DNA of 64,000 nucleotides from an uncultured Chloroflexia bacterium (GTDB taxonomy: Bacteria; Chloroflexota; Limnocylindria; Limnocylindrales; CSP1-4), in the NCBI GenBank assembly GCA_963741915.1, contig CAVUJW010000013.1:651791-715790 (forward strand), in the 5' to 3' direction. The position numbers and the translations under genes are program-made. Shown here in pieces: positions 23,567 through 53,715 of the stretch (position 1 is its first letter; every line of letters begins with the position of its first letter). Below the pieces are notes generated by a model. The model was given only the letters and a program-made list of their open reading frames with translations, was not told where the DNA came from and made no database searches.

Positions 23567-23595
23567 ATTGAACCAAAAAGGAACCAACCGTGCAA
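23567..23595 (-). promoter_or_regulatory. GGTTCA-repeat promoter module, copy upstream of the TIM-barrel isomerase gene
   Basis: Reverse strand reads TTGCAC-ggtt-GGTTCC-ttttt-GGTTCAAT. About 57 nt upstream of ATG 23510. Confidence 0.5.
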
Positions 23596-23608
23596 GCGAG
23601 TCTGGCCG

Positions 23609-25345
23609 TCAGGCGAGGCTTGCGACGTAGACCTCGTGGGCGCCGAGGTCGATCTCCCCGCCTGCGTCCTGGACGGGCGGCCGATCCCGGCTCGACAACA
23701 GCACGCGCAGGGTTCCGGGCGGCAGGTCGAGGCGGATCGCCTGGTCGCGATCGGTCATGTTGAGGACGACCACGCAGGTCTCGCCGGCGGCCGAACGACG
23801 GAATGCCAGGTGCCCTTCCGCGTCGGTGTTCAGCAGGGTGCAATCGCCGCACCGGAGCGGGCGGTGCCGCCGCCGCACCCGGATCAGGCGCCGGTAGAAC
23901 TCGAGCAGGGAGCCAGGGTCGTCGCGCTGGTCGTCGACGTTGATGCCCTCGGCGTAGGTGCCGCTGACCGGCAGCCAGGTCACGGTGCCGTCCGGGCTGA
24001 ACCCGGCGTTGGGCGCGTTCGACCACTGCATCGGGGTTCGGCTCTTGTCACGTCCGTGCCTCGCCGCCAGGTCGACCGCGTCGGCCTCCGACAGGCCGAG
24101 CTCCTCGAGCGCGGCCCGGTGCAGCCAGCGCCCCCAGTTGTCACGGAACCTGCCCGCGTCATCCAGCAGGAGGTCGGTCATGCCGATCTCCTCGCCGTAG
24201 TAGAGGAAGGGCGAACCGGGCAGGGTGAGGACCAGCGCGGCGGCCAGGCGAGCGGTCGCGAGATCGCGGCCGCCACTCTCCAGGCGGGACCGAACGCGAG
24301 GCTCATCGTGGTTGCCCAGGGTGTTCGCCGCCCACGCACCCTCCGGGATCGCTGCCCAGCGCTCGACCAGGAGCCTGCGGACCGCATCCGGACGCAGCCA
24401 CGACGTCCGCATCAGCGGGAAGTTGAACACCAGGTGCAGCTCGTCGCCGGCCGACCCGTAGTACGCGACCTGGTCCGTCTCGCCGATCAGCACCCGGCCG
24501 GGATACTGGTCGACCACGGCCCGCAGGTCGCGCATCAGCTCGTGCACCTCGGGCTGGTCGAGCTGGCGGGCAAAGATCCGCGCCAGGCCCGCCTCGATCG
24601 CGGCCCGTTCGTCGTCGGTGCGCGCCGTGATCCATCCGCGGCGCAGCTCGGACAGCGTGCGCGGTTCATCGTGATCCCTCAGCGCCGCGTCCTCGAAGGC
24701 TGCGTCCGGGGCGTCCAGGCGGAAGCCGTCGACGCCGAGGTCAAGCCAGAACCGCATGACGTCCGCGATCGCGCGCCTCACCTCCGGGTTCCGATAGTTG
24801 AGGTCGGGCTGCTCGCGCAGGAAGGCGTGGTAGAAGTACTGGTCGGTCGCCTCGTCCAGCGCCCAGGCAGAGCCGCCGAACTGCGACATCCAGTTGTTGG
24901 GCGGTCCTCCATCATGGGGGTCCTGCCAGACGTACCAGTCCCGCCTGGCGCTCGTCCGGCTGGAGCGTGACTCGAGGAACCACGGGTGCTGATCGGAGGT
25001 GTGGTTGAGCACGAGGTCGATCACGACGCGGATGCCGCGCGCATGGGCGGCGTCGAGGAAGGCGCAGAAGTCCTCGAGGGTCCCGTAAGCGGGATCGACG
25101 CCCACGAAGTCGCTGACGTCGTAGCCGAGGTCGGCCTGAGGCGACGGATAGTGCGGGGACAGCCAGATGGCGTCGATCCCGAGGTCGGACAGGTGGTCGA
25201 GCCGGCTGGTCAGGCCTGGCAGGTCGCCGATGCCATCGCCATTGCCGTCGGCGAAGCTCCGCGGGTAGACCTGGTAGAAGACGGCCTCCTTCCACCACGC
25301 GCTCGGGCGGCCCGCGATCGTGCCGGGTACCGCGGGCGTCGTCAT
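23609..25345 (-). CDS. GH13 alpha-glucosidase / oligo-1,6-glucosidase-type enzyme
   Basis: ORF 23609-25345. WWKEAVFYQVYPRSFADGNGDGIGDL, GIDAIWLSP, GFRLDA. Confidence 0.9.
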   Translation of the reverse strand: MTTPAVPGTIAGRPSAWWKEAVFYQVYPRSFADGNGDGIGDLPGLTSRLDHLSDLGIDAIWLSPHYPSPQADLGYDVSDFVGVDPAYGTLEDFCAFLDAAHARGIRVVIDLVLNHTSDQHPWFLESRSSRTSARRDWYVWQDPHDGGPPNNWMSQFGGSAWALDEATDQYFYHAFLREQPDLNYRNPEVRRAIADVMRFWLDLGVDGFRLDAPDAAFEDAALRDHDEPRTLSELRRGWITARTDDERAAIEAGLARIFARQLDQPEVHELMRDLRAVVDQYPGRVLIGETDQVAYYGSAGDELHLVFNFPLMRTSWLRPDAVRRLLVERWAAIPEGAWAANTLGNHDEPRVRSRLESGGRDLATARLAAALVLTLPGSPFLYYGEEIGMTDLLLDDAGRFRDNWGRWLHRAALEELGLSEADAVDLAARHGRDKSRTPMQWSNAPNAGFSPDGTVTWLPVSGTYAEGINVDDQRDDPGSLLEFYRRLIRVRRRHRPLRCGDCTLLNTDAEGHLAFRRSAAGETCVVVLNMTDRDQAIRLDLPPGTLRVLLSSRDRPPVQDAGGEIDLGAHEVYVASLA

Positions 25346-25364
25346 CTGGGGATTGCGACCCAGG

Positions 25365-26798
25365 CTAGCCGGCCTTGACGTAGACCGGGTTGGTGAGCGC
25401 CAGCAGGTCCCCGTTGGGCTGGGTGCCCTGGCGCAGCTCGAGGCGCCACCACCGCTCGGCGGTCATCGGCCGCTCGTCCACGCGCGAAGGGCCCGGGTCA
25501 CAGGTGGCGAGCGGCCGGATCGACCCGGAGGTCGCATACCACAGCGTGGCCGGCTGCTCGAGGCGTTCGACGTCGATGGCCAGGCGGAACGCGCCGTCGG
25601 CCGGCAGCTCCATCCCAGGCATGCGGATCTCGACCCCATCGGAGCCGGTCGCCCGGAAGGTCACGATCGGCCCCGCCGAGAGGAACACGCGTCCGAGCCG
25701 GATGCCGTCGAGGATCGACCGCTCGCTCGGGTCGCCGGCTCGGACGTAGGTCGAGGCCGCGCCGGGGGCTGCATCGTCCTCGGCGGCGTGGCTGTCGGTC
25801 CCCGAGATCGCCGTGATCCGGTATCCGGCGTCGAGGAGGTCGGTCCAGAAGGCCAGGGCACCCTCGTTGTCCGATTCGGCCAGCGCCCAGTGGGCGTTCC
25901 AGACCTCCATCGCGTCGATCGTGGCGTAGTCGGCGGACGCGTACTCCCAGCGGCATGCCCCGCACCACGGGTCGCCGTAGGCCATCGGGTGGTTGATCGA
26001 GACGAGCGCGCCCTGGCGATGCGCCGCTTCGACGATGCTGGCCGGGCCGCCGCCGCGTCGCTGGTCGCGCCAGTCGATCGGCGCGCTCAACCCGAGGCCG
26101 TTGATGTGCCCGTAGAACGTCGTGATCTCGCTGCCCCGGATCGGGGTGATCCCCTCGGGCCACGAGGCCGCCTCGCGCAGGTGGCTGGTCGTGTTGTGGT
26201 CGGTGATCGCGAGGAAGTCGAGCCCGTGGTCGAGGGCTCGCTGCGCCCGCTCCGCGACGGTGACCTCCCCGTCGCTGTGGACCGTGTGGGCGTGGAGGTC
26301 GCCGCGATACCACCGCTCACCGCCGGCCGCCAGCCGGCTACCGGGCACCGGTGCGGCGGCGATGCCGGACCCGGCCGGCCGGCCGGTCGTCGCCGTGGCC
26401 ACGAGCTCGTAGCTGACGAAGCCGGTCTCGGCACCGTCGTTGAGGATCACGCCCGTGTCGACGTTGACGGTCCAGGGGCCCGGCGCGAGCGGCCCGGCGA
26501 GCGCGCCCAAGGTGGCCTCGGTCTCGCCGATCACGATCAGCTGCTCGTCGCCCGATTTCGTGGGGGTTCCCCGGAACCCGTCGGCGTCGAACAGGCTCAG
26601 CCCGACCGAGTTCGCCGCGTGCTCCGAGCCGAGGTCGTGGGGTCCCCAGCGAAGGTGGACCCGCAGCTCGACCGTGCGATCGGGGACCCAGATCTCGAAG
26701 CGGTGGTGCTGGTGCGAGTCGCGATGGGTCCAGGTACCGGACCGGTCGAGCAGGGTCTCGGTCCGCTCGGTCGCCACGACTCGCTCAGGCCACGCCAT
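25365..26798 (-). CDS. PHP-domain metallohydrolase (CehA/McbA-like) with an N-terminal domain of about 180 aa and unknown function
   Basis: ORF 25365-26798. YRGDLHAHTVHSDG, FLAITDHN, SINHP, ISGTDSH. Start overlaps the GH4 gene end by 14 nt. Confidence 0.7.
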   Translation of the reverse strand: MAWPERVVATERTETLLDRSGTWTHRDSHQHHRFEIWVPDRTVELRVHLRWGPHDLGSEHAANSVGLSLFDADGFRGTPTKSGDEQLIVIGETEATLGALAGPLAPGPWTVNVDTGVILNDGAETGFVSYELVATATTGRPAGSGIAAAPVPGSRLAAGGERWYRGDLHAHTVHSDGEVTVAERAQRALDHGLDFLAITDHNTTSHLREAASWPEGITPIRGSEITTFYGHINGLGLSAPIDWRDQRRGGGPASIVEAAHRQGALVSINHPMAYGDPWCGACRWEYASADYATIDAMEVWNAHWALAESDNEGALAFWTDLLDAGYRITAISGTDSHAAEDDAAPGAASTYVRAGDPSERSILDGIRLGRVFLSAGPIVTFRATGSDGVEIRMPGMELPADGAFRLAIDVERLEQPATLWYATSGSIRPLATCDPGPSRVDERPMTAERWWRLELRQGTQPNGDLLALTNPVYVKAG

Positions 26799-28131
26799 AC
26801 CGCTCGACGAGCGTCGGCTGGCCCGCGATGTAGCCGTCGAGGATGCGCCCCGCGACCTCGACCGACGGCACGAGCGGATGCATCGCGAGGGCCTTGATGG
26901 CCATCCCGCGGGAACCGGAGAGCGCCGCTTCGATGGCCGCCCGCTCGGCCGCCCGGACGGACAGGATCAGGCCCTGGGCGTCGAGGGGGACGCTGCCGAT
27001 GGCCGCCGGCACGACCCCGCCCCGACCGATGATGCACGGCACCTCGACGATCGCGTCCTCGTCGAGGAACGGCAGGCTCGAGCGGTTCGGCACGTCGAGG
27101 ATCATCACCCGGTAGCCGTCGCCGTACAGGCCGTCCACGAGATTCAGCGCGAGGGTTCCGTAATCGCCCGGCCCGCGCGCCGCGACGACCCCGGCCATCG
27201 CGTCCTCGCGCCCCGTCCAGGCCTCCTCCATGTAGTGCGACTCGCGGTCGGCGTGGGTGCGGCGCCAATCGCGGAGCGCCTCGGCAGGGGAGCCGTTCCC
27301 GGCGTAGAACGCGGCCTGCTGTCGCTCGAGGAAGGCCGAGCGGACTCTGCCGGCCTGCATCGCCTCGAGGGCCTCCGCGTTGTAGTAGTAGTAGTACAGG
27401 TACTCGTTCGGGATCATGCCCACCGAGCGTAGCCAGTCGGCGCCGAACAGCCGGCCCTCCTCGAACGTCTCGAGCCGTTCGGGATCCGCGAGCAGCGCGG
27501 GCAGCACGTCCCGGCCTTCGTCGAGGACGCCGCGCAGCCAGCCGAGGTGGTTGATCCCGAAGTAGTCGAACCACAGCTCCTCGGGCGGCCGTCCCAGCGC
27601 TCCCGCGACCCGCTTGCACAGGTCGAGCGGCGCGTCGCAGATCCCGATCACCCGGTTTCCCAGGATGCGTCGAGCCGCCTCGGTCACCAGCCCGACCGGG
27701 TTCGTGAAGTTGACGAACGTCGCGCCGGGCGCCCGCCGCGCCACGACCTCGGCGATCTCGGTCACGACCGGCACGGTGCGCAGCGCGAACGTGATCCCGC
27801 CGGCCCCGGTCGTCTCCTGCCCGATCACGCCCTGGGCGATCGCGGCTGTCTCGTCGAGGATCCGGCCGGCCATGCCCCCGGCGCGAACCGCACAGTAGAC
27901 GACGTCCGCGCCGTCAACGGCCGCCTCGAGGCTCGTCGTCATCCTCACCGGCGGCGCCGCCCCGACCTCCTGGGAGATGCCGTCGAGGACGCGCGCGATC
28001 CGGTCGAGGCGCGCCTGATCGATGTCGTGGAAGGCGATCTCGTCGTAACGCGTCGTGACGTCGCCCGCGGCGAGGGCCCGGTAGATGACTGGCGTCCGGA
28101 AGCCCCCGGCGCCGATCAGGGTGAGCTTCAT
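26785..28131 (-). CDS. GH4-family NAD/Mn-dependent glycosidase
   Basis: In-frame ATG 28131 (MKLTLIGAGGFRTP) within ORF 26785-29565. NFTNP, ICDAP, INHLGW. Confidence 0.8.
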   Translation of the reverse strand: MKLTLIGAGGFRTPVIYRALAAGDVTTRYDEIAFHDIDQARLDRIARVLDGISQEVGAAPPVRMTTSLEAAVDGADVVYCAVRAGGMAGRILDETAAIAQGVIGQETTGAGGITFALRTVPVVTEIAEVVARRAPGATFVNFTNPVGLVTEAARRILGNRVIGICDAPLDLCKRVAGALGRPPEELWFDYFGINHLGWLRGVLDEGRDVLPALLADPERLETFEEGRLFGADWLRSVGMIPNEYLYYYYYNAEALEAMQAGRVRSAFLERQQAAFYAGNGSPAEALRDWRRTHADRESHYMEEAWTGREDAMAGVVAARGPGDYGTLALNLVDGLYGDGYRVMILDVPNRSSLPFLDEDAIVEVPCIIGRGGVVPAAIGSVPLDAQGLILSVRAAERAAIEAALSGSRGMAIKALAMHPLVPSVEVAGRILDGYIAGQPTLVERYGVA

Positions 28132-28137
28132 GCCATG

Positions 28138-28166
28138 ATTGAACCAAAACTGAACCGCAAGAGCAA
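28138..28166 (-). promoter_or_regulatory. GGTTCA-repeat promoter module, copy directly abutting the GH4 start (leaderless geometry)
   Basis: Reverse strand reads TTGCTC-ttgc-GGTTCA-gtttt-GGTTCAAT, then catggc (6 nt), then ATG 28131. Confidence 0.55.
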
Positions 28167-28232
28167 GCCTGATTTTGGGATCGTCCGTCGATGCCCTGGC
28201 CCGCCCCGGCGACGAAAGCCCGGTGAGATGGG

Positions 28233-29027
28233 CTAGAGGGCGAGCCTGGGGGAGCCGACGCCGGCCGTGAGGGTCGTCGCGAAGGCGTAGCGGTCGCCGC
28301 GGTTCTGCAGGCGCGCCGTCTCGAATGGCTCGTCGTACTGATCGAACGTCATCTCGTCGAGCTCGAGCAGCGGGTCCCCGGTCGCGACGGTGAGCAAGGT
28401 CGCGACGCGCTCGCTCGCGGGCACGGCCCGTACCACGACCTCGGCGCGGCTCCCGATGAGCCCGGCGCGTTCGCGGATCGTCCCGAACAGGGACCGGCTT
28501 GCGAAGTCGACGCCCTTGAGCACGGGGATCAGGCGCGGGTGCAGGACCGAGTGGTCGAACGAGAGCGGGACGCCCTCGACATAGCGGACGCGCTCCAGCT
28601 CGAACACCTTCGCGGAGGTGCCGATCCGGAGGTCGGCAGCCTCTGCGGCCTTCACCGGTCGCACGCGCGCGCTGACCACGGTCGACGTCACGACGTAGCC
28701 GTGGCGAGCCGCCCACTCGGTCAGGCTCGGGGGACCCTCGATCCGCTCGGTCACCGCCTGGCCCACGACGACCCAGCCACCCCGGCCACGGGCCTGGATG
28801 AGCCCCTTCTCGCCCAGGGCCGACAGCGCGCGGCGCAGCGTGTTGCGCGCGACACCCAGGCGCGCACCCAGCTCGCGCTCGGGAGCGAGGCGGCTCCCCG
28901 ACTTCAGCCGGCCGGTGAGGATGTCGGCCTCGATCCGCCGGAGCACCTGCACCGAGGGCAGATCGTCTCCATGGACGTCCCGCCGCCCGTTTCCCGGTTG
29001 CGCATCCGCGGCCTGCCGTTGGTTCAT
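28233..29027 (-). CDS. GntR-family regulator, HutC subfamily (UTRA effector domain)
   Basis: ORF 28233-29117 (ATG 29027 or 29117). ERELGARLGVARNTLRRAL winged HTH. Confidence 0.8.
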   Translation of the reverse strand: MNQRQAADAQPGNGRRDVHGDDLPSVQVLRRIEADILTGRLKSGSRLAPERELGARLGVARNTLRRALSALGEKGLIQARGRGGWVVVGQAVTERIEGPPSLTEWAARHGYVVTSTVVSARVRPVKAAEAADLRIGTSAKVFELERVRYVEGVPLSFDHSVLHPRLIPVLKGVDFASRSLFGTIRERAGLIGSRAEVVVRAVPASERVATLLTVATGDPLLELDEMTFDQYDEPFETARLQNRGDRYAFATTLTAGVGSPRLAL

Positions 29028-29185
29028 TGTTGGTACGCTCGACCCCACCAGAAGCTCCCTCCGCGGCGACCCGGTCGGCTCGGCCGCCTCCGTGCCGGGG
29101 CGGCCAGGGGGCCTCATGGGCGCCCGATCCTAGGAGATCGCATTGTATGGCCTGACGTTGGCGCATTTCTGGTGAGGATCCTCGC

Positions 29186-30046
29186 GTGAAGGTCGACGTC
29201 GTCTGCGTCGGCGACCCGTTCCTCGACCTGATCTTCCTCGGCCTCGCCGCGATGCCGGCTCCCGGCGAGGAACGGCTCGCGAGCCGCCTGAAGGTCGTGC
29301 CGGGCGGCATGGCCAACGTGGCGTACGCGCTGCGGCGCCTCGGGCTGGACGCGGTCATCTGCGCCCCGAAAGGCAGGGACGTGGCCGGCCGCTTCCTCGC
29401 CGGGCTGATCGAGGACGCCGGCGTCCCGTGGCATGGACGCGAGGGCAAATCGACGCCGGTGACCGTCGCCCTGCCGGCCGCCGGGGACCGTGCGCTGCTC
29501 AGCTTCATGCCGGCGCCCACCGTGGACATCGAGACGCTGCGAGGCCTCACGATGCTCGCCGTCATCGTCGACCTGCCGTCGGCCCCCCTGCTGCCGCCGG
29601 TGCCGTGCGCCTACGCGGTCGTCGGTGATCCGGAGGTCGCCACCCTGGCCGGGCGGCTCCCCGCGACGCTCGGCGGGATCCACGCCCTGATCCTGAATGA
29701 GCGTGAGGCGAGCGGGCTCACCGGGGCGCCCGATGCCCGATCGGCCGGGCGGCACCTGGCCTCGCTCGGCACGACCGTCGTCGTGACGCGCGGTCCGCTG
29801 GGCGTCCTGGCGGTCCAGCCCGACGGGCAGACGGTCGAGGTCGCGGCGCCCCGGGCCGACGTTGGCGATGCGACCGGCGCCGGCGACCTGTTCGTCGCGG
29901 CCTACACCTGGGCAGACCTCGAGGGCCGTCCGCTCGAGGAGCGGCTGCGCCTGGCGGCGAGCTACGCCTCGATGTCGCTGGAGCGGGCGACGGATGGCCT
30001 GAAGGGGATCACCCTGCGCGAGTTCGACCAGCTGATGCCCGGTTGA
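29186..30046 (+). CDS. PfkB-family carbohydrate kinase
   Basis: ORF 29186-30046 (GTG start). C-terminal DATGAGDLF motif. Confidence 0.8.
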   Translation: MKVDVVCVGDPFLDLIFLGLAAMPAPGEERLASRLKVVPGGMANVAYALRRLGLDAVICAPKGRDVAGRFLAGLIEDAGVPWHGREGKSTPVTVALPAAGDRALLSFMPAPTVDIETLRGLTMLAVIVDLPSAPLLPPVPCAYAVVGDPEVATLAGRLPATLGGIHALILNEREASGLTGAPDARSAGRHLASLGTTVVVTRGPLGVLAVQPDGQTVEVAAPRADVGDATGAGDLFVAAYTWADLEGRPLEERLRLAASYASMSLERATDGLKGITLREFDQLMPG

Positions 30047-39359: not shown

Positions 39360-39424
39360 GCGCTCGACCGGCCGAGGGCGAACGCTGCCCTTGCCTTCTG
39401 GGGCCGCGGGTCGAGACTTGGTCG

Positions 39425-39454
39425 TTGACTCAGGCGGTTCAACTTTGGTTCAAT
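39425..39454 (+). promoter_or_regulatory. GGTTCA-repeat promoter module, copy upstream of the ABC permease genes
   Basis: TTGACT-caggc-GGTTCA-acttt-GGTTCAAT. About 155 nt upstream of ATG 39609. Confidence 0.5.
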
Positions 39455-39608
39455 GGGCCTGACGCCGAGGGTCCCGGACGGGCCTGGAGATCCATCGTTG
39501 GAGGTTGATGTTGGTGGTTCCAGGACCCGAGCATACCCCTCGGCGTGACGTCCCCGACCGTCGATCCGGTGCACCGTCGCCTGGAGCGCCGATGGGTGCG
39601 GCGCGATC

Positions 39609-40604
39609 ATGACCGCGATCGGCGGGGCCTCAGCGCCACTCCCCCAGGGCGCCGCCCGGCGCACGCGCTGGTCACGACTGAAGCTGTCCCGGGCCGAGCG
39701 GAAGGGGCTGCGCACCGGCCTCCTGTTCATCTCGCCGTGGATGCTGGGGTTCCTCGCCTTCAACCTCTACCCGGCCCTGGCGTCGCTCTACTACAGCTTC
39801 ACGAACTTCAAGATCCTCCAGTCCCCACGCTGGATCGGGCTCGACAACTACGCGGCGCTCGTCAAGGATCCCCTGTTCTGGAAGTCGCTGGGCAATACCC
39901 TCTACATGACGCTTGTCGGCGTTCCGCTCGCGGTCGTCGTGGCCCTCGGTGTCGCGCTCCTGCTCAACAACAAGGGCGTCCGGGGGCTCGGGTTCTTCCG
40001 AACCGTGTTCTACCTGCCGGTCGTGATCCCATCGGTGGCGGCGGCGCTGCTGTGGATCTTCCTGCTCAACCCGTCGAACGGACTCCTCAACCAGAGCCTG
40101 GGGCTCGTGGGCGTCGACGGACCGGGCTGGTTCTTCGACCCATCGTGGGCCAAGAACGGGCTCATCCTGCTGACGGTGTGGACGGCGGGCGACGTCGTGA
40201 TCATCTACCTCAGCGCCCTCCAGGGCGTGAGTCGTACGTTGTACGAAGCCGCCGACGTCGACGGCGCCGGGTCGTGGGTGAAGCTGCGCCACGTGACGAT
40301 CCCGATGATCAGCCCGGCGATCCTGTTCAACCTGATCACCGGCGCGATCGCGGCCTTCCAGGCGTTCACCCAGGCCTTCGTGATCGGCAACGGCGTTTCG
40401 CGGTCGACCAACGACGCGTCGATCGGCGGCGTCCAGAACTCGATGCTGCTGTACGGCCTCAATCTCTACAACGTCGCGTTCCGGTACTTCCAGATGGGCT
40501 ACGGGTCGGCCCTCGCCTGGTTCCTCCTGGTGACCATCCTGCTGGCGACGGTCGTGCTGCTGCGCGTCTCGCGAAACCGCGTCTACTACGAGAGCTCACG
40601 ATGA
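39609..40604 (+). CDS. CUT1 ABC sugar transporter permease (MalF/UgpA-like)
   Basis: ORF 39609-40604. EAADVDGAGSWVKLRHVTIP EAA loop. Confidence 0.9.
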   Translation: MTAIGGASAPLPQGAARRTRWSRLKLSRAERKGLRTGLLFISPWMLGFLAFNLYPALASLYYSFTNFKILQSPRWIGLDNYAALVKDPLFWKSLGNTLYMTLVGVPLAVVVALGVALLLNNKGVRGLGFFRTVFYLPVVIPSVAAALLWIFLLNPSNGLLNQSLGLVGVDGPGWFFDPSWAKNGLILLTVWTAGDVVIIYLSALQGVSRTLYEAADVDGAGSWVKLRHVTIPMISPAILFNLITGAIAAFQAFTQAFVIGNGVSRSTNDASIGGVQNSMLLYGLNLYNVAFRYFQMGYGSALAWFLLVTILLATVVLLRVSRNRVYYESSR

Positions 40605-41479
40605 CCGCCCTCGCGACGCAGCGGCCGATGGAGTCGCGGGCCGCGGGCCGCCGCTGGAGCCGGATCCTGGCGGAGGGCGCACCGATGGTGGTGCTCATCC
40701 TGCTCGCGGCGTTGTACCTGCTGCCGTTCGTCTGGATGATCACCACCTCGTTCAAGACCCAGCCGCAGTCGATCGCCGCCCCGCCAGTGATGTTTCCGAA
40801 CCCGCCCACGTTGTCGGCGTTCCCCGACTCGCTCTCGCTGATGAACTTCCCGCTGGCCCTGCGGAACACGCTGCTCTACGCGGTGCCGGCGGTCATCGGC
40901 ACGCTCATCTCGTGCAGCCTGGTTGGCTACGGGTTCGCCCTCGTCAGGTGGCGGGGCCGCGACATCGTGTTCCTGATCGTGCTCGCGACGATGATGCTGC
41001 CGACCCAGGTGACCTTCATCCCGCTGTACGTCATCTACGCCAAGCTGGGGTGGGTCAACACCTTCCTGCCGCTGGTCGTTCCGACGTTCCTCGGCAGCCC
41101 GTTCTTCATCTTCCTCCTGCGGCAGTTCTTCCTGGGGATCCCGAACGACCTCCTGGATGCCGCGCGGATCGACGGCGCGAGCGAGCTCCGGATCCTGACC
41201 CGGATCGTGGTGCCGCTGTCCAAGCCGGCCCTGATCACCGTCGGCCTGCTCACGTTCATCGACAAGTGGAACGATTTCTACGGCCCCCTGATCTACCTCC
41301 AGAAGCCGGAGCTCCGCCCCCTGTCCGTGGCACTCCAGGTGTTCCAGACGGCCCACAGCACCGAATGGCCCCGCCTGATGGCTGCCTCCGTGATCATCGC
41401 GGTGCCGCTGGTGGTGATCTACTTCCTGGCCCAGCGCTGGTTCATCGAAGGGATCACGCTCACCGGGTCGAAGGGTTGA
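40601..41479 (+). CDS. CUT1 ABC sugar transporter permease (MalG/UgpE-like)
   Basis: ATG 40601 (ATGA overlap) in the frame of ORF 39545-41479. DAARIDGASELRILTRIVVPL EAA loop. Confidence 0.9.
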   Translation: MTALATQRPMESRAAGRRWSRILAEGAPMVVLILLAALYLLPFVWMITTSFKTQPQSIAAPPVMFPNPPTLSAFPDSLSLMNFPLALRNTLLYAVPAVIGTLISCSLVGYGFALVRWRGRDIVFLIVLATMMLPTQVTFIPLYVIYAKLGWVNTFLPLVVPTFLGSPFFIFLLRQFFLGIPNDLLDAARIDGASELRILTRIVVPLSKPALITVGLLTFIDKWNDFYGPLIYLQKPELRPLSVALQVFQTAHSTEWPRLMAASVIIAVPLVVIYFLAQRWFIEGITLTGSKG

Positions 41480-41485
41480 CGCGAG

Positions 41486-43751: not shown

Positions 43752-43774
43752 ATGTGTGATACATTACACATGTG
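43752..43774. promoter_or_regulatory. AT-rich imperfect palindrome (candidate operator)
   Basis: ATGTGTGATACATTACACATGTG: ATGTGT/ACACAT arms 8 nt apart, plus an overlapping CACATGTG palindrome. It is the only AT-rich patch in the 43715-43872 spacer. Confidence 0.35.
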
Positions 43775-43872
43775 AGGCGTCCTGATCCGTTCCCGCTGGA
43801 CGCGCCCGAGGAACGTGCCGAGGTGGGCCGAATCCTCGCCTGCTGGGACCATGCCGCCGGGAGCGCCGTGGC

Positions 43873-45033: not shown

Positions 45034-45082
45034 TGCCCCGATGGGGACCAATCCCGGCGCCCAGAGCAAGGAGGCACGAGCC

Positions 45083-45994: not shown

Positions 45995-46054
45995 CCCGGG
46001 CCACCGCTCTGACCCGCCGATGGGGCACGGGCAGCGGGGTCGCCGTTCCGAGGA

Positions 46055-46843: not shown

Positions 46844-46847
46844 GCCG

Positions 46848-47795
46848 TCAGGGTCTCGGGTCGCTCGCGGACCCGCGCCGGGGCCAGGCGAGGCCGCCAC
46901 CGATCGCGGGCACCCAGACCGATGCCGTGGGATGCTGCCGGCGCATGGCACGGACGAACAGGTCCGGACGTCCCGTGTTCCCGCGAATTGCATCGAAGTG
47001 CATCGGGATCGCGAGCCGTACGCCGAGATCGCGGGCCACGCGTGCCGCTTCGTCCGGGGACAGGTTGCCGACGATCCCACGGCGTTCGCGTTCGGGACCG
47101 CGGCCGTTGATCGGCACCAGCGCGATGTCCGGGCGCAGCGGGGCCGCGGCGGCGACGATGCGCTCGTCCGCCAGCGTGTCGCCCGCGTGGTACACCCGCA
47201 CGCCGCCGATCTCGACGACGTAGCCCACGAACCGGGGCGGGCGAGGCGGGTGATCGCCCAGCGAGTAGCCGTCCTCCACGCGGACCGCGTGTCGAGCCGG
47301 CACCGGCGTGGCGCGCGCGCCGCCCAGCTGGATGGGCGATCCGACGCGGGCAGCGGCCACCCGGTCGGCCGGGATCCCGGCCGCGGTCACGAGCGGGACC
47401 AGGGGCTCGGGCACGACGAACCTGGCGCTCGGTGACGTTCCGGCGATGACGGCCCACGCCGGGAGATCGAGGTGGTCCTCGTGCTCGTGGGTGGCGAGCA
47501 CGGCCGTCACGCCGTCCATCTCAGCGGCGTCGACTGCCGCCTCGGCCAGCCGGTCCGGCCGAGGCGAGAGGAACGGATCGATCAGCAGCAGCTCGTCCCG
47601 GAAGCCGAGGGCGAAGCCGGCCTGTCCGAGCGCGACGATCCACACGGCGTCCGGCGCTGGACGCCAGGCCGCGACCCGCGCTGCGGCGGGGGCGACAGCC
47701 GTCATGCCGGCCTGCCTTTCGTCCAGCCGGCCCCCGGGCGAGGGCAGGGGCCCACGCGCTGCGCCGGCGGGCGGTCGCCGCGGCCCGGCGTTCAC
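46848..47795 (-). CDS. MBL-fold metallo-hydrolase (UlaG/lactonase-like)
   Basis: ORF 46848-47795 (GTG overlapping the upstream TGA; ATG 47705 is an alternative). LATHEHEDHLD. Confidence 0.75.
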   Translation of the reverse strand: MNAGPRRPPAGAARGPLPSPGGRLDERQAGMTAVAPAAARVAAWRPAPDAVWIVALGQAGFALGFRDELLLIDPFLSPRPDRLAEAAVDAAEMDGVTAVLATHEHEDHLDLPAWAVIAGTSPSARFVVPEPLVPLVTAAGIPADRVAAARVGSPIQLGGARATPVPARHAVRVEDGYSLGDHPPRPPRFVGYVVEIGGVRVYHAGDTLADERIVAAAAPLRPDIALVPINGRGPERERRGIVGNLSPDEAARVARDLGVRLAIPMHFDAIRGNTGRPDLFVRAMRRQHPTASVWVPAIGGGLAWPRRGSASDPRP

Positions 47796-48547
47796 GATGG
47801 TGTCGTCGGCGCAGGCTGCGTCGGCCCTGCCGCCTCCTCGACGTGGCGAAGGGTGTCCGCGAGCGCCTGCCGGAGGTGGGCCGTCATCGCGTCGGACGCG
47901 GTGCGGCCGTCGCGGGCGACGATGGCGTCCACGATCCGACGGTGCTCGCCCTGCCGGTGCGGCTGGCTGCGGTAGAGGCGCGGGAAGACCGCGCGGGCGA
48001 TGAGGACGTGCGTCCGGAGCCCGTCGTACAGGGTGCTGAGCCGCCGGTTGTGGGCCGCGCGAACGATCGCCCCGTGCAGGTCGGCGTCGATCGCGATCTC
48101 CTGGAGGTACGCCTCGAGGTTGGCGGCCAGGCTCACCCCGTCGGCAGGCCCGGACTCGAGCCGCTCGGCCAGGGCCTGGATGCGCGCGATGTCCTCGGGG
48201 CCGGCACGGGAGGCGGCCGCCTCCGCCGCCTGCGGCTCGAGCATGAGCCGGATCTCGTAGAGCTCCTCGATGTCCCGGATCGATACGGGCGACACGACGG
48301 TCCCGCGGCGGGGCATGACCGTCACCAGGCCCTCTGCGGCCATCTGGTTCACGGCATCCCGAACCGGGGTGATGCTGACGCCCATCGTGGCCGCGATGAC
48401 GGGAGGAGAGATCCGCTCGCCGGGTTCCAGCTCGCGACGGAGGATCCGGCGGAGCAGGCGGTCGTGGATCTGCTGCTGGAGCGATCGCAGCTCGAGATCG
48501 GTGTCATCGTTGGTGCTCACACCGGGGAGTGTAGTTGGCTGATGCAT
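47792..48547 (-). CDS. GntR-family regulator, FadR subfamily (FCD domain)
   Basis: ATG 48547 in ORF 47792-48748. VIAATMGVSITPVRDAVNQMAAEGLV winged HTH. Confidence 0.8.
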   Translation of the reverse strand: MHQPTTLPGVSTNDDTDLELRSLQQQIHDRLLRRILRRELEPGERISPPVIAATMGVSITPVRDAVNQMAAEGLVTVMPRRGTVVSPVSIRDIEELYEIRLMLEPQAAEAAASRAGPEDIARIQALAERLESGPADGVSLAANLEAYLQEIAIDADLHGAIVRAAHNRRLSTLYDGLRTHVLIARAVFPRLYRSQPHRQGEHRRIVDAIVARDGRTASDAMTAHLRQALADTLRHVEEAAGPTQPAPTTPS

Positions 48548-48602
48548 CAGATGGCACGAGTCGGCGGTCGTCAGGGACGGACGGCGTCGGCCGCACGTCG
48601 CG

Positions 48603-48631
48603 ATTGAACCAACGATGAACCCTACGGACAA
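48603..48631 (-). promoter_or_regulatory. GGTTCA-repeat promoter module, copy upstream of the FadR-type GntR gene
   Basis: Reverse strand reads TTGTCC-gtag-GGTTCA-tcgtt-GGTTCAAT. About 56 nt upstream of ATG 48547. Confidence 0.5.
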
Positions 48632-48771
48632 GCCCACGAGGGGCTGGCTTCGAGCCGTCCAGCACCCGGTGCGATGGTCACCCCGTGCCCGCTGCGTCCC
48701 CCGGGGCGGGATCAGTCTCCGTCCGCGCTGTCGCCCTGGGTGCGACATCGCGGTTGGTTCAGTTTTGGTTG

Positions 48772-48801
48772 TTGACTGGTAAGGTTCAGATTTGGTTCAA
48801 T
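48772..48801 (+). promoter_or_regulatory. GGTTCA-repeat promoter module, copy upstream of the sugar-binding protein gene (a degenerate extra copy sits at 48753-48775)
   Basis: TTGACT-ggtaa-GGTTCA-gattt-GGTTCAAT, preceded by GGTTGGTTCAGTTTTGGTTGTTG. Confidence 0.55.
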
Positions 48802-48896
48802 CGCTGCGGCCGGACGGACTCCGCTCGGATGGACGGACGTCTCCGGGCATGGAGCTCAGCGCGGAGGACGATCGTGACGCCTGGAGGAGAGCAGGG

Positions 48897-50240
48897 ATGA
48901 GATCGAGACTCGTGGCATCTGCCATGGCGAGCGCGATGCTGGCGGCCGCCTGCGGGAGCGCCAGCCCGACGTCGCCACCCGCGAGCGTCGCTCCCGGGGC
49001 GTCGCCCGCCGCCACCTCGGCTCCGGCCGAGACCGTCACCCTGACGCTCCGCTACTGCTGGGGCGGTGAGGGCGAGGTCGCGGCGATGGAGAAGGTGATC
49101 CAGGCCTGGAACCAGGCGAACCCGGCGATCCAGGTGAAGGGCATCAGCGGCAACATCCAGACCGAGGAGGTCGCCGCGGCGGTGGCCGGTGGCGCGCCGC
49201 CGGACATGGTCATCATGTGCGACAACAGCGCCGTCGCCGGCTTCGCGCACGACAACGTGATCATGCCCCTGGACGACCTGCTGACCAAGATCAGCGCGGA
49301 CAAGAGCGACATCATCCCGGCGTCGCTCAAGTGGGTGACCTACCAGGGCAAGCTCTACGGCCTGCCGTTCGGCCAGGACACCTGGGGGCTCTACTACAAC
49401 ACCGATGCGTTCACCGAGGTCGGCCTGGACCCAGCCAAGCCACCCACGACACCCGACGAGCTCTGGGACTACGCCGCGAAGCTCACCAAGTGGACCCCGG
49501 ATGGCAAGCTCGCGCGCGCCGGGTTCATCCCGACCGACCCCGACTCCAACATCGAGATGACCTCGAACCTGTTCAACTGCCAGTTCTACGACGACGCCAC
49601 CCAGAAGATCACGGTCAACAGCCCCGAGTGCGTGGCGTGGTTCAACTGGTACAAGCGCTGGTTCGACACCTACAACAAGAACAACGCGATGGTCGATCTC
49701 GTCGCCACCCGGACGGGCGGTGACGCGGGTCTGCTCAACACCGGGCAGCAGGCGATGGGGATCTACGGCGAGTGGGAGAACGGCGCTGCCTACATCCCGA
49801 AGAACGCCCCGGACCTGCACTACGAGACGGCGCCGATCCCGGCGATCAGCCCGGACAAGTACGGCGCTGCGTTCATCAACGGCAATGCGTTCCTGATCCC
49901 CACGGGCTCATCCAACCCCGAGGCGGCGGCCAAGTTCGGGATGTACCTCATGACGGACGATCCGTCCCGGACGATGGACATCCAGAACGCGAGCGTGCCG
50001 CAGCTCAAGTCGCTGCTCACGGATCCGACCCTGACGGCCATCCCGCACGAGCAGACGTTCCTGGACCTCGTCAACCACAAGGACTCCTGGGTGACGCCCA
50101 TGATCTCGGTCTACAGCGAGCTGAAGGACGGCCTCGTCAGCGCCCTCAGCGCGGTGACGACCGGTGGCGCCGACCCGCAATCGGCGCTCAACGACGTGGC
50201 CAGCCAGGTCCAGGCCAAGCTCGACGCGAACGGGCCGTAG
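48897..50240 (+). CDS. CUT1 ABC sugar-binding lipoprotein
   Basis: ATG 48897 after GGAGGAG in ORF 48792-50240. Signal peptide with lipobox MLAAAC. Confidence 0.9.
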   Translation: MRSRLVASAMASAMLAAACGSASPTSPPASVAPGASPAATSAPAETVTLTLRYCWGGEGEVAAMEKVIQAWNQANPAIQVKGISGNIQTEEVAAAVAGGAPPDMVIMCDNSAVAGFAHDNVIMPLDDLLTKISADKSDIIPASLKWVTYQGKLYGLPFGQDTWGLYYNTDAFTEVGLDPAKPPTTPDELWDYAAKLTKWTPDGKLARAGFIPTDPDSNIEMTSNLFNCQFYDDATQKITVNSPECVAWFNWYKRWFDTYNKNNAMVDLVATRTGGDAGLLNTGQQAMGIYGEWENGAAYIPKNAPDLHYETAPIPAISPDKYGAAFINGNAFLIPTGSSNPEAAAKFGMYLMTDDPSRTMDIQNASVPQLKSLLTDPTLTAIPHEQTFLDLVNHKDSWVTPMISVYSELKDGLVSALSAVTTGGADPQSALNDVASQVQAKLDANGP

Positions 50241-50322
50241 CACCCGCGAGCCTCCTCCAGGAACCGATCCGCCGCTCCGTCCACCGGGCGGGGCGGCGGA
50301 TTCTTCTCGAGACGGCCGTCCC

Positions 50323-51663
50323 GTGAACGCCCGACGCCCGGTCGGATCGGAACCGTGGGAGCGCCCGGCCCCCGCCGATCGCTGCGCCCGGAGCGAAGCG
50401 ATCGAACGACGGATCCAGGCCGCCGCGGCCCGGATCGCCGATCCAGGCCTCCGACGGCTGTTCCAGGCGACCCTGCCCAACACGCTCGACACCACGATCG
50501 TGGCCGGTGGCACGGACCGGCGACCCGACACGTTCGTCCTGACCGGCGACATCGAGGCGATGTGGCTCCGGGACTCGAGCGCCCAGGTGTGGCCCTACCT
50601 CGCCTCGATCGCGGAGGATCCCGCCCTCGATCGCCTGATCCGCGGCGTGATCCACCGCCAGACCGACCAGGTCCTGCTCGACCCATACGCGAATGCCTTC
50701 CTGGCCGACGACCGGCCGAGCGGGTGGGCCGCTGACGAGGCCGAGATGCGACCGGGCGTCCACGAGCGCAAGTGGGAGCCGGATTCGCTCGCGGCGTTCA
50801 TGCGCCTGTCCACCGGCTACTGGCACGCGAGCCGGTCCTTGCGGCCGTTCGATCCCGCCTGGCGCCGGGCGCTTCTGCTGTGCGTGCAGACCGTCCGCGC
50901 GGAGCAGCGGCTGGACGCCGGCAGCAGCTACCGGTTTCGCCGTCCGGAGGGCGACCCGACCGACGAGGTCCCCAGGGGCGGGCTCGGCGCGCCGACCCGG
51001 CCCGACGGCATGGTCCACGGCGCGTTCCGGCCGTCGGATGACGCGTCGGCGCTGCCGCTGAACGTGCCGGTCAACCTGGCGCTCGCGGCAGCGCTGGACG
51101 CCGTCGCCCCGCTGGCGGCCGCGGCCGGCGAGCCGGGCGCCTCGGACGATGCGCGCGCGCTCGCGGCCGAGATCCGCGCCGGCGTCGAGAGCGACGGCAC
51201 CGCCCAGGTCGGCTCGGACACGATCTGGGCGTACGAGATCGACGGCCTCGGCGGCCGCCTGCTGATGGACGACGCGAACGTGCCGAGCCTCCTGTCGCTG
51301 CCCTATCTGGGCGCCTGCGACCCGGCGGACCCGACCTACCTCGCTACCCGACGCTGGCTGCTTTCGGCGGCCAACCCGTGGTGGTTCCGGGGGCATGCCG
51401 GCGACGGCGTCGGCTCGCCCCATACCGGTCCGCGGCGCGCCTGGCCGATCGCGATCGCGATGCGCGGCCTCACCGCGAGCAGCGATGCCGAGCGCATCGC
51501 GGCGATCCGGGTGCTCGGCGCGACCCACGCCGGCACGTTCCTGGCCCACGAGTCGTTCGACGTGGACGACCCCCGGCAGTTCACGCGGCCGTGGTTCGCG
51601 TGGGCGAACTCGCTGGTCGGCGAGCTGCTGGAGCGGGCGGCTCTGGCCGGGCTGCTGGCCTGA
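50323..51663 (+). CDS. GH125-like (DUF1237) exo-alpha-1,6-mannosidase family protein
   Basis: Frame of ORF 50164-51663; GTG 50323 is tentative. The LTGDIEAMWLRDSSAQ block is as I recall it for GH125. Confidence 0.7.
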   Translation: MNARRPVGSEPWERPAPADRCARSEAIERRIQAAAARIADPGLRRLFQATLPNTLDTTIVAGGTDRRPDTFVLTGDIEAMWLRDSSAQVWPYLASIAEDPALDRLIRGVIHRQTDQVLLDPYANAFLADDRPSGWAADEAEMRPGVHERKWEPDSLAAFMRLSTGYWHASRSLRPFDPAWRRALLLCVQTVRAEQRLDAGSSYRFRRPEGDPTDEVPRGGLGAPTRPDGMVHGAFRPSDDASALPLNVPVNLALAAALDAVAPLAAAAGEPGASDDARALAAEIRAGVESDGTAQVGSDTIWAYEIDGLGGRLLMDDANVPSLLSLPYLGACDPADPTYLATRRWLLSAANPWWFRGHAGDGVGSPHTGPRRAWPIAIAMRGLTASSDAERIAAIRVLGATHAGTFLAHESFDVDDPRQFTRPWFAWANSLVGELLERAALAGLLA

Positions 51664-51669
51664 GTCGGG

Positions 51670-52470
51670 TCAGCCGACCCGCTTCAGCTTGCCCGTGCGC
51701 TTGGCGTGCAGCTCGGCGCGCCCGAAGGCCCACAGCGCGAACGGGACCAGGGTGACGCCCAGCACGATGAGCGGCCACACGTCGCGCCCGAGCTGGGCCG
51801 GCCCGGTGCCCTCGAGGAGGGCGGCCCGCACGCCGTCCAGGACGTACGTCGCGGGCGACAGGTGCGCGAGCACCTGCATCCAGCCCGGCAGGATGTCGAT
51901 CGGGTAGTAGACACCGCTGACGAGGAGCAGGCCCGACTGGACGACGAACGTCATCTGGGCGCCGCGTTCCACGTATAGCAGCGGCAGGATGGCGGCGAGG
52001 ATCCCGATGCCCACGAAGCTGAACGAGCCGAGGACCATGAACGCCGCCGCGGTGGTCGCGTTCGCCCGCGACAGGTCGACCTCGCGGAAGAACAGCACGA
52101 GGACGACCAGGATCACGGCGGTGTGGATCAGGCCGTAGACCATCGCGTACGCGACCTGGCCGACGAGTCGGGCCGACCGCCGGATGGGCGCCATCATCGT
52201 GTACTCGAGGGTGCCCTCCCAGCGCTCGACCGCGATCGTCTCGGCGATCCATCCGAACACGACCGAGAGGTAGTTCCAGAAGATGGCCCCGATCATGAGC
52301 GACAGCACGAGCCGGCTGCTCCCCTGGTCGACGCCGATGAGCGAGATCGATAGGGCGCTCGTGACCGAGTAGACGAGGAACGCGACCTCCCAGGGCCAGG
52401 TCCGTCGCGTCAGGTAGAAGTTGCGTTCGGCGAAGGCGTAGGATGCCCGCAGCTCGTCCCGGATGGTCAC
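51670..52470 (-). CDS. ABC-2-type transporter permease
   Basis: GTG 52470 (GTGA overlap) in ORF 51670-52650. About six hydrophobic helices. Confidence 0.75.
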   Translation of the reverse strand: MTIRDELRASYAFAERNFYLTRRTWPWEVAFLVYSVTSALSISLIGVDQGSSRLVLSLMIGAIFWNYLSVVFGWIAETIAVERWEGTLEYTMMAPIRRSARLVGQVAYAMVYGLIHTAVILVVLVLFFREVDLSRANATTAAAFMVLGSFSFVGIGILAAILPLLYVERGAQMTFVVQSGLLLVSGVYYPIDILPGWMQVLAHLSPATYVLDGVRAALLEGTGPAQLGRDVWPLIVLGVTLVPFALWAFGRAELHAKRTGKLKRVG

Positions 52471-53339
52471 GAGACAGCCTCCCCGTCGTCCTCGGAAACG
52501 TCGTCGTCGAGGGACCGGCCGGTGTGGGCCATGAACACGTCCCAGAGGGTTGCCTCGCGCCCCATCCGCTGCGATGCGGTCGCGATCAGGCCCTCGGGCG
52601 TGTCGCGGGTGACTACGCGCCCGCCGTCGATGATCGTGATGGCGTCGCACAGGCGCTCCGCCTCGGCGAGGTCATGCGTGGTCAGCACGATCGTGGTGTC
52701 GTGCGTGTCGCGGACCTCCTCCACGAACTCCTGGACATCGAGCCTCGAGCGGGGATCGAGCCCGGTCGTCGGCTCGTCGAGCAGGAGGAGGGTCGGGCTG
52801 GTCAGGAGCGCCCTGGCGATGGCGACCTTCTGCTGCATCCCCCGGCTCATCTGTTCGATCGGGCGGTCGATCCGGTCGCGGCCGATGTGAAGGCGCTCGA
52901 GGATCTCGTAGACGGATGTCCTGGCGGCCCGCACGTCGAGGCCGTACACCCGCGCGGCGAAGGCGAGGTTCTCCATCGGGCTGAGCTTCCGAAAGAAGGC
53001 GGCGTCGACGCTGACGCGGTTGATCAGGCGCTTGACGGCCAGCTCATCGCGCACCAGATCGTGACCGAACACCTCGACCCGTCCCGCGTCCAGCGTCAGG
53101 AGCCCGGCGATGAGCCGGATGAGGGTGGACTTGCCCGACCCGTTGGCCCCGAGCACGCCGTGGATGACCCCACGCTCGAGGCGCATCGACACGTCCGTGA
53201 CCGCGTCGACCGGTGGCCTGCGACGCCCGACCGGAAACGTCTTGCTGGCGTGCTCGACGAGCAACGCTGGAGGACGCACGGCGGCCGGCGAGGCGTCCTG
53301 TGGGACGGGGGATGGGTGGGCGATCGAGGGCGGGATCAC
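52467..53339 (-). CDS. ABC transporter ATP-binding protein
   Basis: ORF 52467-53339. GANGSGKST, MSRGMQQK, LLLLDEPTTGLD. Confidence 0.85.
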   Translation of the reverse strand: MIPPSIAHPSPVPQDASPAAVRPPALLVEHASKTFPVGRRRPPVDAVTDVSMRLERGVIHGVLGANGSGKSTLIRLIAGLLTLDAGRVEVFGHDLVRDELAVKRLINRVSVDAAFFRKLSPMENLAFAARVYGLDVRAARTSVYEILERLHIGRDRIDRPIEQMSRGMQQKVAIARALLTSPTLLLLDEPTTGLDPRSRLDVQEFVEEVRDTHDTTIVLTTHDLAEAERLCDAITIIDGGRVVTRDTPEGLIATASQRMGREATLWDVFMAHTGRSLDDDVSEDDGEAVS

Positions 53340-53685
53340 GGCCGGCCTCCTGGGGCGCGAGCAGCATCAGCAGGGAGTCAACGCCCGGACGGTTCGTCCG
53401 GGGCAGCGACGGCTCGAGAACGAACGAGCCGCGGGCATTGGCCCACGGCTCCCAGCGCTGCTGCACGGCGGCGGTGCCGCCACCGGATCACCGCGAGACG
53501 AGCACCGCTCGCGACTGGGTCCCAGCGCTCCCGTGGGCCTGCGCGTATCGAGCTGCGATCTCCATACGATGGCCTCAGGTAGCGGCTTCCGACTGGTGGT
53601 CCATCATTGGTTCAGATGGCCGCCGGACGCCGATTGTAGGGGCCTCCGGGGTGGGCGTCAAAAGTGCCGATTCCGGGCGATTCCC

Positions 53686-53715
53686 TTGACACTATTGGTT
53701 CACTTCTGGTTCACT
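53686..53715 (+). promoter_or_regulatory. GGTTCA-repeat promoter module, copy directly abutting the P450 start (leaderless geometry)
   Basis: TTGACA-ctatt-GGTTCA-cttct-GGTTCACT, then tgatcg (6 nt), then GTG 53722. An extra GGTCCA-N5-GGTTCA sits at 53598-53614. Confidence 0.55.

Follow-up and report, generated by a model that had tools for sequence, protein, structure and literature searches.

Results

Genes and repeated sites of the window

We analysed 64,000 nucleotides of an uncultured Chloroflexia bacterium of the class Limnocylindria (contig CAVUJW010000013.1, positions 651,791 to 715,790; hereafter the window), in which a promoter-like string of 29-30 bp recurs in front of genes for sugar utilization. 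The window has a G+C content of 72%, and its genes were assigned by Pfam and, for the HutC-type regulator, also by NCBIfam. On the minus strand lie the gene for a xylose-isomerase-like (IolE-like) TIM barrel (22533-23537), a run of genes for a glycoside hydrolase of family 13 (GH13), a PHP/CehA-type hydrolase and a GH4 enzyme (23609-28131), and the gene for a HutC-subfamily GntR regulator (28233-29027), a protein of 264 aa with a GntR winged helix-turn-helix (wHTH) and a UTRA domain. They are followed by pfkB for a PfkB kinase (29186-30046) and by a gene for a GntR regulator with an FCD domain, which is divergent from genes for two ABC permeases, an esterase, a GFO oxidoreductase, an enolase-superfamily protein and a PhyH protein. 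A second GntR/FCD gene (47792-48547) is divergent from genes for a sugar-binding protein (SBP) and a GH125 enzyme, and an ABC-2 exporter operon (53339 down to 51670) from a P450 gene. The regulators encoded in the window comprise three GntR, one ArsR and one TetR protein, and protein family scans found no gene for a sigma factor, an anti-sigma factor or a response regulator within these 64 kb.

Six full copies of the string, which we call the module, occur at the coordinates and on the strands given in the initial annotation, and the downstream genes proved to be those it had named, i.e., xylose-isomerase-like TIM barrel, GH4, ABC permeases, SBP_bac_1, FCD-type GntR and P450 according to Pfam. 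The module of GH4 lies at 28138..28166 on the minus strand (TTGCTC-ttgc-GGTTCA-gtttt-GGTTCAAT; 32.1 bits in the weight-matrix scan described below). The module before the TIM-barrel gene, also on the minus strand (23567..23595; TTGCAC-ggtt-GGTTCC-ttttt-GGTTCAAT; 30.4 bits), would act as an internal promoter after the GH13 gene. On the plus strand, the ABC permease operon (39609-41479 and later genes) is preceded by a module at 39425..39454 (TTGACT-caggc-GGTTCA-acttt-GGTTCAAT; 32.4 bits) and a leader of ~150 nt, and the P450 gene by a module at 53686..53715 (TTGACA-ctatt-GGTTCA-cttct-GGTTCACT; 27.1 bits). The remaining two modules belong to the FCD-type GntR gene at 47792-48547 (48603..48631, minus strand; TTGTCC-gtag-GGTTCA-tcgtt-GGTTCAAT; 26.1 bits) and to the SBP-GH125 operon (48772..48801, plus strand; TTGACT-ggtaa-GGTTCA-gattt-GGTTCAAT; 29.5 bits). 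These two modules are part of a 38-nt inverted repeat (48588-48625 and 48779-48816, 76% complementary), which reaches ~15 nt past the module (ATCGC..GCGGCCG) and suggests either that a promoter cassette was duplicated locally or that a 5' element is shared.

The recurrence of the 30-bp string is real and beyond chance. The pattern GGTTCA-N5-GGTTCA with at most one mismatch has seven matches in the window; dinucleotide-preserving shuffles give an expectation of 0.06, and 0/100 of them reached seven. A weight matrix trained solely on sites outside the window and then run on it finds exactly nine sites of 21.9-32.4 bits, namely the six full modules and three partial copies, and no tenth site above 12 bits in the 64-kb sequence. 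The partial copies are recovered where the initial annotation had placed them, at 48755-48772, 53597-53614 and 29020-29037, and all nine sites are intergenic or in 5' regions.

Conservation of the module in related genomes

A pattern scan with GGTTCANNNTTGGTTCAAT, covering one genome per species, returned mostly chance or coding matches in unrelated taxa among the matches listed. Among these listed matches the full module was found only in high-GC Chloroflexota, at least 14 loci from metagenome-assembled genomes (MAGs) labelled Candidatus Limnocylindrales or "uncultured Chloroflexia", and the genes 3' of the modules in these loci are orthologues of the GH4, permease, P450 and esterase genes of the window. 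Other Chloroflexota matches (loci L011, L013, L026, L043 and L101) have no -35 box, look unrelated and were rejected. Across dozens of Limnocylindria-like contigs the module is conserved at the same genes (GH4, ABC permease operon, P450, esterase and PfkB), for example before perm1 of the permease operon in L028, L036, L045, L079, L115, L116, L125 and L154, and at the P450 orthologues in L039 and L123. Approximately 448 kb of related DNA contain 51 unique sites, none of which is located deep within a gene (0 of 51), and every site except the auxiliary pairs described below faces the next gene.

A sample independent of the motif was obtained by retrieving 45 metagenomic loci via GH4 protein similarity alone. 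All GH4 orthologues of at least 84% identity (17/17) carry cTTGnCn(4-5)GGTTCAnnTTTGGTTCAATc, with the ATG 6-8 nt later, and the DNA flanking this module is unconserved among them. At 69-71% identity some GH4 genes have the module and some a shifted version of it, and two loci have no repeats and carry TAGTCT-N6-GTG in their place; below 60% identity the repeats are gone. The gene order of the GH4 neighbourhood is shuffled across genomes, and the module still stays with GH4.

The tandem repeat as a separable, probable operator

The consensus of the candidate operator consists of two direct repeats spaced by 11 bp, yGGTTCA-nn-TTT-GGTTCA, and this tandem was found in three placements. In the common, or main, register it lies over the spacer and the -10 box, where the TTCA in the hexamer TTCAAT, as well as the extended -10 TG, comes from its second repeat. 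In the shifted register (L132, L133, L136, L160, L164-L168, and the pfkB promoters of L035, L139 and the window) it is displaced by ~3 bp toward the -35 box, and the hexamers read CAGTCT, CAATCT, CACGCT, CAACCT or TACGCT. The start codon then follows 11-12 nt past the tandem versus 8-10 nt in the main register, while the distance from TTG to the start is unchanged. In the third placement the tandem is inverted and lies downstream of a TTGACG-17-TACAAT promoter. Because it takes several positions and both orientations at a constant -35-to-start distance, we regard the tandem as a repressor operator and not as a sigma element, and the TTT between the repeats, since it is kept in both registers, as part of the binding site and not of the promoter. 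Of the two possibilities raised in the initial annotation, the one of an operator embedded in a promoter and bound by a direct-repeat-binding regulator is thus favoured.

Two of the partial copies had been described as incomplete promoter modules, which does not hold for either. The copy reported at 29021-29038 is a shifted-register operator facing pfkB (29020..29037, plus strand; T-GGTTCA-ttgtt-GGTACG; 21.9 bits), which belongs to a promoter with the -10 box TACGCT (29034-29039) and extends across the HutC start codon; its orthologues in L035 and L139 have the sequence cTTGACCytGGTTCAtyGTTGGTCCA, followed by CAnnCT, 7 nt and GTG. The copy reported at 53598-53614 is a stand-alone pair with neither a -35 box nor AAT (53597..53614, plus strand; T-GGTCCA-tcatt-GGTTCA; 25.5 bits). 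It is antisense to the divergent ABC-2 exporter transcript, at ~+12 to +28 of a canonical TTGACG-17-TACAAT promoter (53633..53661, minus strand; 10/12 consensus matches), and the same arrangement is found in L048, where the promoter is conserved as TTGACG-18-TAGAAT. An inverted tandem is present downstream of the HutC gene's own TACAAT promoter as well.

The third partial copy is one of the auxiliary pairs, which are weaker tandems across the -35 box and occur in the SBP promoter, L028 and L045. In the window it overlaps the -35 box of the SBP promoter (48755..48772, plus strand; T-GGTTCA-gtttt-GGTTGT; 23.8 bits), and together with the module it gives repeat starts at offsets 0, 11, 27 and 38, a layout shared by L028 and L045. 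The permease promoters of the latter two loci have a full upstream auxiliary pair, GGTTCAgatttGGTCG. In the window a possible weak auxiliary pair, GGTCGA-gactt-GGTCGT, read from the sequence and below the matrix threshold, overlaps the -35 box of the permease promoter (39409..39425, plus strand), and its GGTCGTTGACT portion is retained in several related loci.

In one lineage (L168, 3639-7284) a GH4 paralogue lies on either side of the HutC gene. The divergent copy has a shifted-register tandem, and the downstream copy a degenerate main-register module (GGTACAgatttGGTGCAAT) and an upstream GGTCCAaatttGGTC pair. According to these GH4 sites, GGTRCA is tolerated as a half-site.

Three other identities of the repeated string were considered and rejected. 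A sigma-54 promoter (GG-N10-GC at -24/-12; TGGCAC-N5-TTGC) does not fit a second element that reads TTGG and not TTGC, a GG-to-GG spacing of 11 rather than 12, and the presence of a conserved -35 TTGAC. An RNA element does not agree with the position of the sites upstream of the inferred starts, and Rfam gave no match in the window. The paper on the acetogen promoter Pcauto holds TGGTTCAATA, but the motif concerned is an (A/T)G periodicity and unrelated.

Promoter anatomy

The module combines a TTGnCn -35 box, a spacer of 17-18 nt, TG at -15/-14 and the -10 hexamer TTCAAT, or TTCACT at P450. TTG, which was absent from the search pattern, is located 10-11 nt before the first repeat across 43 non-redundant sites, and the -35 box resembles TTGACA at 16-18 nt before the -10 as in sigma-70-type promoters. 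In every case of the leaderless type (GH4, P450, esterase and PfkB) TTG precedes the start codon by 35-37 nt. The start codons of these genes have no Shine-Dalgarno sequence and sit 6-8 nt past the hexamer in many genomes. This geometry supports the earlier reading of the string as a promoter in which a spacer of 17-18 nt separates the -35 box from a TG-extended -10. In the window the ATG of GH4 (28131) lies 6 nt past TTCAAT and the GTG of P450 (53722) 6 nt past TTCACT, both consistent with a leaderless mRNA. The GH4 Pfam match begins at residue 2, therefore the conserved ATG is the true start and no space is left for a ribosome-binding site. The GH4, P450, esterase and PfkB mRNAs appear to be leaderless, starting at the start codon. 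At two further places in the window an ordinary -10 hexamer stands exactly 6 nt before the start codon of a probable leaderless gene, TAACGT before the TetR gene (57572) and TAGGAT before a gene of the phosphotriesterase family (58387), and these genes would support leaderless TANNNT promoters as the norm in this organism.

Extended -10 (TGn) sigma-70 promoters with leaderless mRNAs are common in Actinobacteria and Deinococcus. The module promoters resemble them in the TG at -15/-14, the end of the hexamer 6-8 nt before the start and the missing Shine-Dalgarno sequence, but differ in the strong conservation of the -35 box and in the hexamer TTCAAT, which has no A at -11. This A is near-invariant in sigma-70-type -10 hexamers and normally needed. 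The initial annotation was right that the -10 box has no A at position 2: TTCAAT and TTCACT have T at -7 and deviate from TANNNT at -11. A sigma-70 consensus scan that needs the -11 A rejects the modules solely for this reason, yet detects TTGACG-17-TACAAT at 53661-53633 on the minus strand. The shifted-register hexamers CAGTCT, CAATCT, CACGCT and TACGCT have both A at -11 and T at -7. Since TTGACn also serves with TACAAT in the promoter at 53661-53633, the -35 element of the module is taken to be the housekeeping one. TACAAT at 29141-29146 on the minus strand, which had been listed as an ordinary promoter box, is real and conserved as the -10 box of the HutC gene itself, and an interpretation as a coding remnant of pfkB was rejected. 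On the sequence data, the module is best described as a putative promoter of the ordinary (sigma-A/sigma-70) type with a built-in operator and not as a new promoter class.

The HutC-type regulator

The most likely candidate for the binder of the GGTTCA tandem is the HutC-type GntR protein encoded at 28233-29027 on the minus strand, which we prefer over the FadR-type (FCD) GntR protein whose gene carries a module. The HutC gene adjoins GH4 or PfkB in all tandem-bearing loci that lie outside the clade with GH4 identities of at least 84%, and it does so down to a HutC identity of 48%; no HutC gene was found beside GH4 outside that clade where the tandem is missing. In divergent HutC/GH4 loci the tandem is the only shared non-coding element, and the module takes up nearly the whole intergenic space. 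When loci were picked by HutC homology alone (59-69% identity), the tandem was present between HutC and the divergent GH4 in 5/5 of them. Adjacency to the regulator or target and co-occurrence with it across genomes, as looked for in GntR/HutC operators, are thus both found.

The start codon of HutC often, though not in every lineage, lies inside a repeat, where ATGAACC or TTGAACC is the reverse complement of GGTTCAT or GGTTCAA. In the window it reads ATGAACC, the reverse complement of GGTTCAT in the site at 29020-29037. The protein has an extension of ~25 residues ahead of the wHTH domain, and most homologues are called at 264 aa, the closest of them annotated from Limnocylindrales MAGs. NCBIfam has no equivalog for this regulator, and its nearest solved structures are NagR/YvoA, DasR and PhnF.

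Discussion

We consider it fairly probable that HutC dimers bound to the direct repeats block promoters of the housekeeping sigma factor until a sugar-derived inducer releases them. HutC would bind the tandem half-sites as cooperating dimers and would obstruct RNA polymerase where the operator covers the spacer and the -10 box. At the operators just downstream of the TACAAT promoters that drive its own gene and the ABC-2 exporter operon, it could act as a roadblock. A sugar-derived effector bound by the UTRA domain would then lead to its release. We infer repression rather than activation from the positions that the sites take relative to the promoters, and HutC as the binder from its gene lying beside them.

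Several findings weigh against this reading. HutC-family dimers usually bind GT-N-TA-N-AC palindromes, and the frequency matrix of the site shows no dyad symmetry and nothing of the HutC-type palindrome NyGTMTAKACNy. A hidden palindrome in the tandem was considered and rejected, because the CA..TG on both sides of the T-tract is the sole pairing and positions 6-7 show no selection for symmetry. Five related contigs carry the GH4 module with no HutC gene adjacent to it; these contigs are short and the gene may lie elsewhere. The P450 gene of L039 has a leader of ~65 nt, and the leaderless starts are deduced from geometry only. Finally, plain repression does not account for the firing of derepressed promoters whose TTCAAT hexamer has no -11 A. 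The weak hexamer may be compensated by the -35 box, which is strong, and by the extended -10 TG, both of which are conserved.

The hexamer is also what an activator would account for. In such a case the regulator, HutC or another one, would sit over the spacer and -10 box and be needed for polymerase to open a -10 with no -11 A, giving rise to an activator-dependent promoter class. The strict conservation of TTCAAT/TTCACT in the main register, in at least 17 genomes and six operons, and the rejection of the module promoters by a canonical consensus scan agree with this. On the other hand, the tandem occurs in at least three placements and in both orientations, which a contact-specific activator rarely tolerates, the shifted-register promoters own a proper CANNNT hexamer, and sites over the -10 and past the start are classical positions of a repressor. 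Given in addition that the consensus -35 and extended -10 TG may offset the weak hexamer, we hold an activator to be unlikely. Somewhat less likely again is that a GntR-type protein, being more than a mere repressor, substitutes for part of the -10 recognition, which would imply a conserved leaderless promoter class across a whole class of Chloroflexota.

Direct-repeat binding has precedents among GntR regulators, the closest being FarR and NagQ of the HutC subfamily and NanR, although it represents a minority motif class (PMC4494728). NanR binds with one dimer per GGTATA repeat, cooperatively via an N-terminal extension (PMC8012715). Similarly to NanR of E. coli, a GntR-type sugar-catabolic repressor with GGT-containing direct repeats, and not a palindrome, in the promoter region and released by a sugar effector, the HutC protein has an extension, the ~25 residues ahead of the wHTH, and it would bind GGT-containing repeats in promoters of sugar genes. 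They differ in that NanR belongs to the FadR subfamily with an FCD domain and uses (GGTATA)3, whereas here the domain is UTRA and two copies of GGTTCA are spaced by 11 bp, and binding is demonstrated for NanR only. NagQ and FarR/MngR of Proteobacteria recognize TGGTATT and TGTATTAWTT repeats, respectively (PMC4494728). They share with the regulator described here the wHTH and UTRA domains, direct repeats of the TGGT type and sugar-utilization genes beside the regulator gene, but the half-site is different, and an operator forming part of a leaderless -10 hexamer is unreported for them.

The spacing of 11 bp is also that of the PHO boxes of Streptomyces PhoP, whose direct repeat units are 11 nt long, have a GTTCA(Y) core and show cooperative extension to weaker units (PMC2275107). 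The tandem might therefore be a PHO-box-like site of an OmpR/PhoB-family response regulator, with HutC as a mere neighbour. The period of 11 bp, a T-rich minor-groove spacer after a core of 6 bp, and the GTTCA core shared with the PhoP unit G(G/T)TCAYYYR(G/C)G (GTTCAY in 7/8 core units; PMC2275107) make this worth considering, and the additional degenerate upstream pairs resemble complex PHO operators. The genomic context argues otherwise, as there are no phosphate genes among the targets found, the high-GC Chloroflexota modules listed precede GH4, permease, P450 or esterase genes, and the window encodes no response regulator. Furthermore, the tandem tracks the HutC gene in all five loci selected by HutC, and the auxiliary pairs are 27 bp off, which is not a multiple of 11. 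PHO boxes are located mostly at the -35 of phosphate genes and are activating, unlike the repressor-type positions at sugar genes with a GntR neighbour seen here. We judge such a response regulator quite improbable.

A different protein of the GntR family could also be the binder. The FCD-type GntR encoded at 47792-48547, which would then be autoregulated, is the sole regulator of the window whose gene has a full module in front, and four more half-sites separate the gene from the divergent SBP module. Its orthologues were seen beside no tandem in the related loci, where the contigs are fragmentary and no dedicated homology search was made, and in distant clades the tandem occurs only between HutC and GH4. 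The FCD-type protein is more simply explained as a regulon member and sub-regulator, so its role as the general binder seems a shade more doubtful than that of a response regulator.

The least convincing alternative, and in our opinion a very improbable one, is the distinct promoter class of an alternative sigma factor offered by the initial annotation, in which GGTTCAAT would be the -10 element: it could draw on the conserved non-canonical -10 and the fixed start-codon distance in the main register, but the geometry is not fixed, with two registers and inverted downstream copies, the -35-to-start distance stays constant while the repeats slide by ~3 bp, stand-alone or inverted tandems have neither a -35 box nor AAT, TTGACn is used with TACAAT in the same organism as in canonical promoters, the conserved spacer repeat has no part in sigma recognition, and no cognate sigma or anti-sigma gene is present in the 64-kb window.

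The initial annotation proposed that sugar uptake, glycosidases, one regulator and a P450 form a single regulon, which is strengthened by the recurrence of the GH4, permease, P450, esterase and PfkB links in other genomes; the links to SBP, FCD-type GntR and the TIM-barrel gene were seen in the window only. The predicted regulon includes HutC itself, the GH4-PHP hydrolase-GH13 unit, pfkB with a GFO oxidoreductase gene, and the permease-esterase-GFO-enolase-like-PhyH operon. Further predicted members are SBP with GH125, the FCD-type GntR gene and P450, and the ABC-2 exporter probably belongs to it, too. The GH4-PHP-GH13 unit is probably read on into the TIM-barrel gene, which has a module of its own. 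We speculate that a decorated glycoside, and not a plain sugar, serves as the substrate, considering the NAD-dependent GH4, the GFO oxidoreductases, the TIM-barrel enzymes, the esterase and the P450.

A search of the literature found no publication describing this regulon or its operator and no published work on transcription control in Limnocylindria. In our view the sequences present a regulon operator that is new but of a familiar kind, a putative direct-repeat GntR operator placed inside housekeeping promoters. It gives Limnocylindria, an abundant uncultured class of Chloroflexota in soil and freshwater, a testable regulon of about seven transcription units with a candidate regulator and an operator of 18 bp. 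It is also a clean natural example of a putative HutC-type operator built from direct repeats, and the three positions of one operator relative to the promoter amount to a natural experiment. The occurrence of TTCAAT before probable leaderless genes provides a test case for the reach of the -11A rule outside model bacteria.

Additional sequence elements

Two leaders downstream of the promoters carry conserved sequence. The leader of the ABC-2 exporter operon is ~290 nt long behind TTGACG-17-TACAAT (window 53340-53661, minus strand), is 76% identical to L048 3380-3700, and contains a terminator-like hairpin with a T-rich tail (53451-53426, minus strand). It could be an attenuator or encode a small RNA of ~190 nt. 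The permease leader (window ~39461-39560; L028, L045, L036, L115, L079 and L154) has a conserved block, TGGAGGTTCACAGGCTGGTGGTTCCAGGACCCGAGCATAACCCTCG, and upstream of it a hairpin, CGATCGGC-N7-GTCGATC, with little covariation and no Rfam match. A short upstream reading frame ending in ATGA at the start of the window permease gene is possible.

Beside the FCD-GntR gene divergent from the permease operon, a GntR-style palindrome, GATACATACTATTGTATGATACC, is conserved in L028, L045, L036, L116, L079 and L154 and is probably the own operator of the local FCD-GntR. Considered as an alternative FadR-type operator, GATACATACTATTGTATGATACC was rejected, being absent from the window even at three mismatches.

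In an Anaerolineales MAG (L026, 4245-4301), two inverted matches to the search pattern flank a GC-rich hairpin (ATTGAACCAAAAATGAACCCGGCGGGC...GCCCGCCGGGTTCATTTTTGGTTCAAT) and form a palindrome of ~60 nt with no -35 box, which is probably unrelated to the module. Tandem TGGTTCA-like repeats were also observed in the non-coding DNA of unrelated taxa, i.e., TGGATCAATGGTTCAAnnTTGGTTCAAT before a gene with a GTG start in L070 and L029 (Hypericibacter / Pseudomonadota), three copies of TTGGTTCA in L062 and L066 (Rahnella / Erwinia), and arrays of GGTTCATAATT in L041, L050, L082, L095 and L102 (Bacteroidales). They may represent other direct-repeat operators or iteron-like arrays.

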